Origin: a virus
Lineage: Duplodnaviria; Heunggongvirae; Uroviricota; Caudoviricetes
Length of the DNA stretch: 12,369 nt
Virus record (IMG/VR): IMGVR_UViG_2923323785_000002
Span: 1 to 12,369 of that record
Strand: one strand, 5' to 3'
Position numbers: made by a program. Each line of letters begins with the position of its first letter. The first letter of the stretch is position 1. This document shows, in pieces, positions 6,001 to 12,000 of this stretch.

Positions 6001-9000
6001 GACACAGAGCATATTTCAGGGAGTTTAGCTCTTTCTCTAGCTCTTCCTTGCTTGACGTTTTTGACTTAATAAACTGTTTTTTATTCATTTTGCATCCTTA
6101 CCATACATGGTTTTCAGCGTCTCAACATCGTGTTCAAGATCTATCAATCGTGATGCTATAGTTGCAAGGTCTAGTGCTTGAATGTGTTTATTTTTTTCTG
6201 TCCACGCTTCAAGTGCCGCGACCATCTCAGCATTTAATGAACGAGAATTAGCCTCAGCCAGTTCAATAAGACGTTCCTTTATCTCTACAGGAAGCCTCAG
6301 ATTCACTTGAGGGTTTTTGTACTTACGATCAGACATCGGCACATCCTGAATAATTTTTTACCACAGGATATGTAGGTATCTATTGACTATCAATGCGTAC
6401 CTAAATACTATGTATGCGTACCACATACAACGGAGAATGCAATGAAGGTAAAAACACTGCGTATGCCAGAGAAGTTAGAAAAAATCCTTGAAGAGAAAGC
6501 AAAGGAAGAGTGTCGCTCATTTAGCGCAGAAGTAATTAAACGGGTGATGGATAGCCTGAAGAGAGAGGGGATAACGGTATGAGCTTTATAACCCTAACTA
6601 AAACAAAGTTTGAAAGCAGAAGGACAAGTGATTGGTGGCGGATTAGATTCGAAAAAAACAAAACGACATACACCATAAGACGCCAAAACATTGAGTTGGT
6701 AGAGGGCGCAGGTGACGATTGTGCGCTTATTACATTAACTTCTGGCAGAAAAATTGAGGTTGACCAGTCAGTAGAGCATGTATCTGGATTTTTACTCGGA
6801 CAAGCCGGACAAAAAAGTTGAAGCCCCAACTGCTGGAACAGTCAGGGCTTCGGTATCGTAAAACCACGCATAGGAATTAACGACATGAAAAGTATAGCAA
6901 CAGCAGTATCTACTATCAATGTACCATTCCACGGCGCAGAGCTTTATGTCGTCAATCACAACGGTGAGCCGTACACCCCAATGAAACCTATCGTTGAGGG
7001 AATGGGTATGGATTGGGCTTCACAGTTTACGAAAATGAAGCAGCGGTTTAAAACCTCCATTGTGAAAATCACAATGCAGCTTCCTGGTGATGAACAGCGC
7101 CGTGAGATTATTTGTTTGGCACTTCGCAAACTTGCAGGTTGGTTGCAAACCATCAGCCCTAACAAAGTCCGCCCTGAAATCCGCGACAATGTAATCCAGT
7201 ATCAAGAAGAGTGTGACGATGTGCTATACGAGTACTGGACTAAAGGCCATGTAGTTAACCCACGCAAAGCTAAAAAAGCGTTGCCGGGTAAAATCACCAC
7301 TGAACAGCAGGAAGCCATTAAACAACTCGTTATGAGTCGCGGTCAGTCTCTGCCAAAAGAAAAACAGGCTAAGGCGATGATCACCATGTGGTCGTCACTA
7401 AAATCCCATTTTGGATGTTCGTACAAAGAAATCAGTGAGGAGCAGTTTACCGAAGCACTATCACTTGCAGCTCGAGTTCCACTTGAAGGTGAGTTCATTG
7501 GCAAACAAGAGAAGAAAACCAACGAGCTTTCTGCAAAAGAAGCAAACAGCCTTGTATGGTTATGGGATTATGCCAACCGTTCGCAGGCATTATTCCGCGA
7601 ACTGTATCCGGCGCTAAAACAAATTCAATCGAACTATTCCGGCAGATGCTACGACTACGGTCATGAGTTCTCGTATGTTATCGGAATGGCGAGAGACGTT
7701 TTAATCAATCACACACGAGATGTTGATATCAATGAGCCAGACGGACCAACGAATCTTTCCGCATGGATGAGACTTAAGAATAAAGAATTACCTCCTTCAG
7801 TACATAACTACTGACAGATAACCAACGCAACGACCCAGCTTCGGCTGGGTTTTTTTATGCCCAAAATTCACCGTAGCTACTCAGCGGCTATGGCCTTGAG
7901 AGATAGCACTACACAAAAAGTGTAGTGCAAAAAGCAAACAAATACTCACCGTAGCCATGCTGCGGCGATTCCTTGTATCTGGAGCAAATTAAATGACAGA
8001 TATCACCGCAAATGTTGTGGTAAGCATGCCTTCGCAACTCTTCACTATGGCTCGTTCTTTTAAAGCCGTAGCCAATGGCAAAATTTATATCGGTAAAATT
8101 GACACTGACCCGGTAAATCCTGAAAACCAGATTCAGGTTTATGTGGAAAACGAAGACGGTTCTCACGTTCCTGTTTCGCAACCAATAATCATTAACGCTG
8201 CTGGATATCCGGTATATAACGGACAGATTGCCAAATTCGTAACTGTGCAAGGCCATTCTATGGCTGTTTATGATGCGTACGGTGCGCAGCAGTTCTATTT
8301 CCCGAATGTTCTGAAGTATGATCCTGACAGACTTGCTCAAAAACTGGAGAGTGAATTTGGAACTAAATATATAGGAGCTCCGTCAGGTGGCGGGACTCTT
8401 TATGATATGCTGTGGTTTGTAACTCCAGCACAATTTGGAGCCCCAGAAGATGGGAGCGATGCATCATCCTCATTACAGGAAATGCTTGATTACGCTACAC
8501 TAAACGGTAAGGCAGTATTATTCGATAAAGCGATTACATATAACATAGAAAAGCCGTTAATATATAAGCAAAAAGGATTTCGTAACAGCCGTATTCTTTG
8601 CTATGGTGGACGAACAGTAATAAATCTAAACTCTTCAACAGCGACTTCCGGATTGCCTAATGATGAAAGCGGAATTGTTATGGATGTTAATGCTGCAATT
8701 GTTGTGTCGTCAACAAACCCGGACACCGCGGTAGTAAACCAACCACAGGCTGTATATATAGAAGGGTTGCAATTCACTTCAACTGCTGGCGGTTCCTACG
8801 GAATTTACCTTGGGAAAACACAGAACACAAATATTAACGATTGTAAGTTTACAGGATTCACTGAAGCTGATATCTGCGATAACGGTTCATGGGTATTCAG
8901 AGTTCATGGCTGCCAAATTTTTAGCGCAGCCAACTACGGTATATGGAAAAAAGCAGGTACATCTGCATGGATTACAGAATGTTATTTCCAGAACTCTAAC

Positions 9001-12000
9001 TATGCGGTGCGAATGAAGAGTGGGTACTCTGTTATATCCAAGTGTGCTAATGATTTTACTAAAAATGCCGCATATTGGCTTGAGTCATCGGATTATAACA
9101 GTGTATATACTATTGATGAGTGTGGTTTTGAGAACTCAGGTTCAGATGCTGTTGTTAAAGTTTCTGGGCGTATTGCACTCACATGGTCTAACTGTATGGC
9201 CGGTAACATTGAATCTCAACAGTCACCTGTTCCTACAAATTTACTCTGGGTTCAGGGCGACAGCAACGGTTCTCAGTTTACACTGAGCAATATTAGATTC
9301 CTCAATACTGGTCGTCGCATATGGGATTTAGGGACTAATAGCCGCTTCACCATTAACCGTGTCAACCATGCCTCAGGTGACTTAGCGGATGTATGGGGGG
9401 ATGGGGCGCTTGTCAATGAAAACACCTATAACACCACCAAGTATATGTCCTCCGCCTACCCCAATGGTTTTCAGATTGGACCAACAGGACTTAGCGACTG
9501 GTTCTCATCAGGCGGAAACACTGGCTCATTACCAAACGACCAAAGATTTTTGAGGTACTCCAAGACGATTACCAGAGCATCTGGTCAGAGTTTTGGAACA
9601 ACAACAATAACGTTACCATTTCAGTTGAGTGTCGATGGTGAGGGGTATCAGGTTATTGTCACTCCGAGAGAGTATCCAAATAACGTCCCTACGTATCAAT
9701 GGCATTGCGCAAGTTATAATCATACATCCACTGATGTTCAGATTATAGCTGGTCGTGGTGATGGTAACACAGCATGGTCAACAGTTATTGTTGACATATT
9801 AATAATTGGAAAAGCGATAAACTTTTAATTGCTCAAAGGCATGAGGTCTGTCATCCAATCATCAATCTAACGATGGCTTGTTGTGGCTGATGAGATAAAA
9901 ATGAGACACACAACGATTTTGCATTGACTCGCAAGGCTTTGTGCTCTTCGATAGTGGTTAAGGTGGATCACTCCACCTTTTCATCAAGCCAGTCTGCCCA
10001 CCACTGCATCATTTCTCTGCGCTTATCAAGATACTGAGCATGGTTGTAAATTCCACGCACAGATCCGCCGTTGGCATGTGCCAGTTGCACTTCAATAGCG
10101 TCAGCAGGCCATTCGTGCTCGTTCATAATCGTGCTGAATTCATGCCTGAATCCGTGACCGCTTTCCAGACCCTCATAGCCGATTTGTTTGATCACAAGCA
10201 ATACCGCGTTCTCGCAGATTGGCTTCTTCTTATCGTTGCGCCCGGCAAAAACAAACTCTGATACTGGTTTGGTGATTGAGCTTAGCGTAGTGAGAAGTTC
10301 AACTACCTGGTCTGACATAGGAACCACATGAATTTTGCGTCCCTTCATCACATTGGCGTCGATGGTGATAATCCTGTTTTCAAAATCGACGTTCTTCCAT
10401 TGCATGGAACGAAGCTCTTTCGTTCTTAGGGCTGTATAGCGTAAAACTTTGGTCGCAATGAGCGATACGATGCTTCCTGAAAATGTTGCCAGTGCTTTGT
10501 TAAATGCCGGGATCTGGTCTGCAGGAAGAAACGGGAAGTTTTTCTTGCGGTATCCCTTCATGGCGTCAGCAAGGTCAGGTGCCGGGTTATATTTAGCCCT
10601 ACCAGTGACAATAGCGTAACGGAAAACCTCGCCGCATCTTCTGCGGGCTTTATTTGCTCGCTCCATTGCACCGCGATCTTCAAATCTGCGGATTACTTCC
10701 AGCAGTTGCATCGGCTCAATATCCTGAATTTCAAGGCCGCCGATGATAGGTAAAATGTCGTCATCAAACATTTTTGCAAGTTCAGTCGCATACCCTACTG
10801 ACCATACTTGCTTCTTGTGCTCGTACCATTCCTTGTAAATCGCACTAAAGGAATTGTTGTTAGACGAAGCCTTTTTCGCCTTTACCGGATCGATGCCAAC
10901 CGAGATGTCTTTCCTCGCAGTCCATGCCTTATCCCTTGCCTCCTGCAAAGTCATTAGCGGATATTTTCCTACGGTCAGGATTTTCTCCTTACCGTCAATC
11001 TTGTAGCGAAGCTGCCATACCTTTTTCCCGGATACAGGGACATAAAGGTACAGGCCATTACCATCGAGAAGGCGGTATGGTTTTTCTTTCGGCTTTGCTG
11101 CTTCAATCTGCTTAACAGTGAGCATGGGTAAAAATCCGGTGGGTAAAATTATTTTATCCACTTTTTACCCGTCATGGAGTGCGGCTGTCAACGATCTGAC
11201 GCGAACCATTACGAACTGTGAATCTACGGAAGGCTTGATATTCAGGGGATTTTGCGGACTGGTACGGATTGGAACGAACTGATAAATGGTGTCCCCTGCA
11301 GGAATCGAACCTGCAATTAGCCCTTAGGAGGGGCTCGTTATATCCATTTAACTAAGAGGACAATGCGGCATGAGTATACCCGCTAATGGACTGCGGGGTA
11401 AGTACGCTGCCGCTCGATTGCTTAAACCCTCGCCATTTATGCTGGGTTTTTATCATTTTTCTTAATGTTTTCCGCACGTTCTGCTTTTTGGCGTGCTTCT
11501 GCTTTACGCTTGTTGCTCATGTCGTTACGAATCTGTGCATGACTCATTAACGCGAAGATAAAGGTGCCGCCGCAGATGTTCCCCGCTAAAGTAGGTAGTG
11601 CGAAGGGCCAGATGAAATCGCTCCAGTGCAGCGTGCCGTTAAACACCAGATAGAGGATTTCAACAGAACCGACAACGATGTGGGTGGTGTCACCCAGTGC
11701 AATAAGCCAGGTCATCAATATAATCACCACAATCTTTGCCGCACCCGCAGCAGGAAACATCCAAACCATAGTGGCGATCAGCCAGCCGGAAATGATCGCG
11801 TTGGCAAACATCTCGCTGGGGGTGTTCTTCATCACATCCATGCCGATTTTGACAAATGCATCGCGAGTTTCTTCATTGAAGATAGGCATATATTCAAATG
11901 CCCATGCAGCAATACCTGTCCCGAGAATATTACCCAGCAGCACGACGCCCCATAATCGCATAAGTAAGCCGACGTTGCTCATTGTCGGTTTTTGCATGAC

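Follow-up and report, generated by a model that had tools for sequence, protein, structure and literature searches.

The prophage remnant and its tailspike gene

The DNA analysed here, the window, is a 12,369-nucleotide (nt) stretch of Caudoviricetes origin (IMG/VR record IMGVR_UViG_2923323785_000002). It spans cscB (sucrose permease, 1-1248) to yfdC (11437-12369), and a prophage remnant lies between these genes. A 15-nt core, TGGTGTCCCCTGCAG, is found at the 3' end of argW (11287-11301) and is repeated directly at 1690-1704. The attP region of phage IME10 is an exact hybrid of the two attachment (att) junctions. Because both att cores are located within the window, the whole prophage is visible and measures 9.6 kb. 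Our analysis focuses on its tailspike gene at 7993-9828 (plus strand), which with 611 codons is the longest open reading frame (ORF) in the window. The ORF is very probably a structurally intact homologue of gene 9/14 of an IME10-like, argW-integrating P22-like phage (Lederbergvirus), surviving as a silent passenger in the remnant.

The tailspike is composed of an anchor and a receptor-binding domain (RBD):

7993-8331, plus strand: tailspike residues 1-113, gp9-type head-binding (virion attachment) domain (PF09008; Sf6 gp14, P22 gp9)
8399-9828, plus strand: tailspike residues 136-611, exchangeable RBD cassette (beta-helix ~140-470, C-terminal beta-rich domain ~515-611)

The order mnt-arc-sar-ant-terminator-tailspike-intS-argW is the P22-family placement, and an intact prophage of another strain (L011, see below) has the same order. 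The integrase gene and the limits of the remnant are:

1690-1704, no strand assigned: attR core TGGTGTCCCCTGCAG, a copy of the argW 3' end and the left limit of the remnant (direct repeat; IME10 attP hybrid)
9968-11125, minus strand: intS-type tyrosine integrase gene, convergent with the tailspike gene (Phage_integrase, Phage_int_M, Arm-DNA-bind_3; intS in relatives)
11287-11361, minus strand: tRNA-Arg(CCU) gene argW, with its 3' end, 11287-11301, as the attL core (ARAGORN, Rfam tRNA, att alignment)

IME10 (Lederbergvirus, NC_019501) has the same IntS integrase and attP, at 96-97% nt identity. The int region is 96.7% identical to that of IME10, and positions 1690-2033 are 97% identical to the IME10 DNA beside attP. 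IME10 is a complete 39.6 kb phage, in contrast to the 9.6 kb remnant.

The tailspike ORF is intact and keeps a P22-type anchor

The ORF starts at an ATG with a GGAG ribosome-binding site 5' to it, and the N-terminus of the protein is MTDITANVV. Four independent public assemblies carry the window DNA at 100% identity over 10-12 kb, and NCBI already lists the protein as WP_244573626.1, 'phage tailspike protein [Escherichia coli]'. The exact agreement of these records indicates that the open frame is real and not a sequencing accident.

The complete Head_binding family in Pfam (PF09008, positions 1-113 of 113) matches residues 1-113 with an E value of 1.6e-68. In a phmmer search of the PDB this domain matches Sf6 gp14 (7sg7; 223.8 bits, E 4.7e-65) and P22 gp9 (178 bits, E 3.5e-51). 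The N-terminal domain of WceF (6tgf) aligns to residues 7-129 (E 2.2e-9). PDB sequence alignments are confined to residues 1-126, and the ~490 residues that follow are open throughout. Within them, Pfam places Beta_helix (PF13229) at residues 253-367 and Beta_helix/NosD at ~240-370. An earlier sequence-only reading of this DNA had proposed an intact tailspike with a P22-type head-binding domain and a long uninterrupted C-terminal region that differs from the P22 endorhamnosidase. Each of these proposals is borne out by the results above.

The match to WceF raises the idea that the protein is a domesticated bacterial glycan-modifying enzyme, which like Pantoea stewartii WceF would trim the cell's own polysaccharide. 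Tailspike-derived bacterial enzymes exist, and WceF is among the top Foldseek matches of the structural model described below. We nevertheless consider this origin very improbable. The N-terminus, beginning MTDITANVV, is a near-perfect virion head-binding domain, with no export signal found by inspection. The context is that of a canonical phage (ant, terminator, gene 9, int). In addition, the spike is almost identical to that of an intact prophage and is common to lytic phages.

The element is a deletion remnant of a full phage

The DNA at 2503-4100 matches HK97-type O/P DNA at 98%, and the match is abrupt at both ends. P22-like homology, covering gp16 and immI, starts at 4100, where the megablast pieces break. 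These breaks mark two deletions. At the first joint, ~2503, the immunity (repressor) and early-left region has been lost. At the second, ~4100, the loss extends from mid-helicase to late gp16. Gone with it are nin, the late activator, the late promoter, the genes for lysis, terminase, portal, scaffold, coat, tail hub and needle, and most of those for ejection proteins. Two genes flank or contain these joints:

2520-3260, plus strand: lambda O-type replication initiator gene (PF04492, E 1.2e-31; phrog_345)
3257-5026, plus strand: chimera of a DnaB-type helicase and a gp16-type ejection protein, 589 amino acids (aa) (Pfam, phrog_6704, megablast break)

In the chimera, helicase codons 1-281 are joined in frame to the C-terminal ~300 codons of the ejection protein. 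DnaB and DnaB_C are confined to residues 1-280, and residues 282-578 correspond to positions 410-706/707 of phrog_6704 (gp16-type ejection protein). The truncated and fused genes indicate decay of a full phage. Between the att cores the ejection-protein fragment in the chimera is the sole virion-derived sequence other than the tailspike, in agreement with the earlier statement that no virion genes are nearby.

The element is small and carries an integrase, an excisionase, both att sites, a replication initiator and a receptor-binding protein (RBP) but no capsid genes. This inventory would also fit a phage satellite, P4-like or similar to phage-inducible chromosomal islands, which redirects helper virions with its own tailspike. 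Such an identity is highly unlikely. The genes are fragments of a full phage, with the helicase cut at residue 281 and continued in frame by the C-terminal 300 aa of the ejection protein, and the HK97-type O/P and P22-like immI homology is collinear with ordinary prophages. Scans with Pfam and PHROG found no packaging-redirection, small-terminase or pac-type genes. Furthermore, another strain has, at the same site, an intact prophage of the 40-kb type that carries the same spike.

That prophage, L011, is located at the argW/yfdC site of another E. coli. It is P22-like and contains coat, gp4, gp10, gp7, gp20, gp16, immI and ant. Its tailspike differs from that of the remnant at 4 aa, and the RBD at 6 of 1,428 nt. 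A further locus, L010, has a 95% identical spike adjoining a full virion module. Other P22-like deletion remnants are found between cscB and argW in E. coli OHT76-1 (L008) and E. coli 1EC187 (L009). Their head genes are gone, and they keep intS and an intact tailspike of other RBD types (743 and 816 aa). The genome of the E. coli O104:H4 outbreak strain contains a remnant with an intact P22-like tailspike and a novel RBD, and a related strain has the complete prophage (Scholl et al., 2012; PMC3303846). A remnant with a surviving tailspike is thus an already known situation and no surprise.

The G+C content is 0.49-0.54 over the HK97-like O/helicase segment (2750-4250) and 0.38-0.46 in the remainder of the remnant. 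This rise is consistent with a mosaic origin of the replication module.

The RBD is an exchangeable cassette

Similarity to other E. coli tailspike genes stops at nt ~8330 (residue 113) and restarts 7 nt past the stop codon. Of 5,426 complete E. coli genomes, 1,135 have tailspike genes to which the head-binding DNA (~340 nt) shows mostly 90-96% identity. For the RBD DNA (8399-9828), megablast and blastn (word size 11) found no match in the same 5,426 genomes or in 50,697 phage records. An exhaustive HMMER search covering 1.84 billion cluster representatives returned only 12 clusters that match the RBD.

Among its carriers is a ~48 kb Kagunavirus-like siphovirus contig from a metagenome (L005). 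Its tailspike DNA aligns gap-free from 8399 to the stop codon, with 88.5% identity, and the RBD there is attached to a Tail_spike_N anchor. The same RBD is also found in metagenome contigs of a PolA-encoding siphovirus (L013) and a multi-tailspike myovirus (L012), and all three contigs encode it at 92-94% aa identity. The anchor domains differ among these three copies. The presence of one RBD on different anchors and backbones shows that temperate and lytic phages have recently exchanged the cassette. It is a self-contained unit that recombination has moved from one phage backbone to another. The ratio of nonsynonymous to synonymous substitution rates (dN/dS) is 0.04-0.15 across its copies, and the cassette is under purifying selection.

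The RBD subtype is rare and has no characterised or deposited phage representative, and in metagenomes it is carried by at least four phage backbones. It is missing from the 5,426 complete E. coli genomes yet present on these backbones, and is thus probably a marker for an E. coli surface glycan that has been under-sampled.

The immI circuit and expression of the tailspike gene

A complete P22-type immI circuit, together with the terminator that follows it, survives at 6085-7851:

6085-6336, minus strand: mnt-type Arc-family repressor gene (PF03869 Arc, E 3.3e-10)
6365-6411, both strands: divergent overlapping promoter-like sites, Pant (plus, 6383-6411) and Pmnt (minus, 6393-6365), found by promoter scan and assigned by analogy to P22 immI
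6442-6582, plus strand: arc gene, 46 aa (PF03869)
6816-6883, minus strand: sar antisense RNA against the ant ribosome-binding region (Rfam RF00262, full length, 81.2 bits, E 3.8e-16)
6885-7814, plus strand: ant antirepressor gene, 309 aa (P22_AR_N, E 2.1e-44; P22_AR_C, E 5.5e-30)
7832-7851, plus strand: intrinsic terminator-like hairpin and T-run in the gap between ant and the tailspike gene (8-bp stem with 5 GC pairs, then TTTTTTT)

The sar gene has a matching promoter (6919-6891) and terminator (6851-6820). An additional 80-aa ORF (6579-6821) in the gap between arc and ant has no family match and is missing from L011.

The late operon of P22-like phages ends with the tailspike gene and has a single promoter dependent on Q/gp23, and the ant moron lies between the tailspike gene and the remainder of the operon (PMC8022706, PMC2629481). 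A consensus scan found no promoter-like site from the terminator to the tailspike ATG. The sole upstream promoter, Pant, should be kept off by the resident mnt, arc and sar. With the late promoter and its activator deleted, a terminator upstream, no detectable promoter of its own and Pant presumably repressed, the tailspike gene is expected to be silent or nearly so. It is thus most likely a silent passenger in the present host. The gene has probably stayed intact because little time has passed since the deletions, compared with the time since it diverged from functional copies.

Alternatively, the spike could have been kept by selection. It may act in trans, through its head-binding domain, on co-resident or superinfecting P22-like virions, or serve as a recombination reservoir for host range. 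It is conceivable that a spike acting in trans retargets virions or poisons their infectivity, giving mis-targeted progeny and a population-level defence. The head-binding domain closely resembles its Sf6 counterpart, and the DNA that encodes it is widespread in E. coli, as described above. The conserved flanks on both sides of the cassette would permit homologous exchange. Independent argW remnants with different deletions all have an intact spike and intS (see also PMC3303846), and the gene shows no decay, being 4 aa from the copy in the intact prophage. However, a recent deletion explains this near identity equally well, and deletion topology alone predicts retention of a gene beside int and att. 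The lack of a detectable promoter, the upstream terminator and the loss of the late activator and late promoter also argue against a selected function, and PADLOC found no defence matches in the remnant. Retention by selection is therefore unlikely, although less so than the satellite and domesticated-enzyme origins, and we favour the silent passenger.

Predicted fold and function of the RBD

An AlphaFold2 model of the tailspike monomer was calculated from a 16-sequence alignment. Residues 140-460 form a regular stack of short strands with a predicted local distance difference test score (pLDDT) of 80-96. The beta-rich C-terminal domain, residues 515-611, has a pLDDT of 55-87. A Foldseek search of the PDB with the model returned the tailspikes of Sf6, P22, HK620 and LKA1 as well as WceF. 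The RBD is thus predicted to adopt the pectin-lyase-like right-handed parallel beta-helix of polysaccharide depolymerases. The beta-helix is the outcome for which structure prediction of the C-terminal region had been suggested as a check.

Three acidic residues are invariant in alignments of the RBD family and are located in motifs on successive rungs: D296 (DNGSW), D354 (CAxD) and E380 (CGxENSG). They are candidate catalytic acids. Searching the PDB with the RBD-family profile identified only anchor domains, the start of the helix ('VTPEQFGAxGDGxTDD') and one weak helix match, 24qi. No catalytic mechanism can be transferred to the RBD. 24qi is the tailspike depolymerase gp86 of Acinetobacter phage Belisarius, which is 18% identical and has another host and capsule target; it supports the fold alone.

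By analogy with P22-like spikes, residues 1-113 would attach the trimer to the gp4/gp10 hub in the tail of a P22-type virion. The beta-helix (~140-470) would bind and cleave a surface polysaccharide, most likely O-antigen, and the C-terminal domain (~515-611) would most likely lock the trimer. Both trimer formation and the enzymatic activity of this putative depolymerase are inferred. Lederbergvirus spikes are by default expected to target an O-antigen (PMC10408124, PMC3303846). This is the probable target here, with capsule as a less probable candidate; the sequence-only reading had named the same two classes of glycan. Literature searches for the host serotype, using the protein accession and the run accessions of the carrier assemblies, gave no match.

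The tailspike also matches phrog_8280, labelled 'colanic acid degradation'. We rejected this label. The match runs through residues 1-360 and is due mostly to the head-binding domain, together with the initial rungs of the helix. On its own the RBD gives no PHROG match.

Comparison with known tailspikes

P22 gp9 (2xc1), Sf6 gp14 (7sg7/2vbk) and HK620 gp9 (2vji) resemble the remnant spike in the head-binding domain, in length and in the succession of beta-helix and C-terminal domain. As in the remnant, genes of P22-like tailspikes are located after the ant moron and adjoin int and att. Unlike the anchors, the RBDs of the P22, Sf6 and HK620 spikes have no detectable sequence similarity to that of the remnant, and structural identity is 10-13%, with about 10-20% over the alignments as a whole. 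With an RBD unrelated in sequence and such low structural identity, the substrates and chemistry of these three spikes are not transferable.

The closest named relatives, at 32-34% identity, are spikes of IME10, UTEC10, CR01, ECML-4 (RBP3) and PGN829.1 (RBP2). The IME10 tailspike is collinear over its full length, with 44% identity overall and ~33% in the RBD. Common to both RBDs are the motifs DVNAA, QPQ, DNGSW, AGTS, SGYS, CAxD and CGxENSG, and the IME10 RBD is a sister subtype. Pas et al. (2023; PMC10408124) assign RBPs to one subtype at identities of at least 30% over at least 60% coverage. By this threshold the remnant spike falls within subtype X2 as a borderline case, with 31.9% identity at 77% coverage and 32.5% at 79% coverage (PGN829.1 RBP2, ECML-4 RBP3). 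Both proteins are X2 members, labelled as in Table S1 of that study (PMC10408124). PGN829.1 gp51 is also the top structural match in BFVD (E 1.6e-27). The anchor of the X2 members is Tail_spike_N, whereas that of the remnant spike is the head-binding domain. Pas et al. remark that a PGN829.1 spike is found in prophages of many serogroups. This was set aside, as it concerns RBP1 and the RBD here matches RBP2.

The spike of the O104 remnant showed O-antigen specificity when grafted onto an R-type pyocin (PMC3303846). It differs from the spike described here in its RBD and in having an O-antigen acetylase gene 3' to it; here the gap between the tailspike gene and intS is 139 bp. Tailspike RBDs are specificity determinants for serotype-specific pyocins, diagnostics and engineered phages, and a remnant-derived spike has already been made into an O104-specific bactericidal agent (PMC3303846). 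The main value of the present spike is as a reagent lead, a candidate serotype-specific binding or depolymerase module. Identification of its glycan would extend the tailspike-to-serogroup map by one entry and yield no new principle.

Several observations weigh against parts of this interpretation. The monomer model has low confidence at residues 1-139 and 495-514; for the N-terminus the sole reason is that the alignment contained no head-binding homologues. The fold does not tell a hydrolase from a lyase or from a non-catalytic binder. On its own the RBD matches no PHROG (E<1e-5), no NCBIfam model and no PDB sequence, and none of the RBD matches found is a relative of known specificity. The nearest relatives, IME10, PGN829.1 RBP2 and ECML-4 RBP3, have no assigned serogroup, and X2 is given none (PMC10408124). 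The predicted silence comes from consensus scans, and weak or readthrough transcription may occur. Finally, the occurrence of several independent argW remnants with an intact spike could hint at selection over chance survival.

Other genes of the remnant

The remaining features are located near the left limit and between the chimera and mnt:

1778-1978, minus strand: torI-type excisionase gene, 66 aa (torI is annotated at the same position and length in L008 and L009)
2110-2289, minus strand: small Lar-like (restriction alleviation) gene, an early-left relic (weak PF14354 match in L001; phrog_2945)
5087-6088, minus strand: moron block of three small ORFs (phrog_21022, phrog_2651, phrog_16466; PF13996)
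5087-5293, minus strand: YobH-like protein, 68 aa
5304-5693, minus strand: 129-aa protein, phrog_2651, with an N-terminal signal-like sequence (by inspection)
5879-6088, minus strand: 69-aa ORF

The remnant may still excise, because both att cores, the integrase gene and the TorI-type excisionase gene are intact. The minus-strand block lies between the gp16 fragment and mnt, where sieA sits in P22. Its small genes could be morons that are expressed in the lysogen and favour retention of the remnant. A defence system among the small ORFs was considered and rejected: PADLOC and NCBIfam identified none, and weak mad1 and mad8 matches reflect the excisionase and helicase folds.

An exact 16-nt copy of the argW T-arm, GGAATCGAACCTGCAA, is found at 1998-2013 (11301-11316 in argW). 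It is located in phage-derived DNA beyond torI, ~300 bp from the attR core, and is also present in IME10. This copy may be what is left of an older attachment site, or it may bind a protein.

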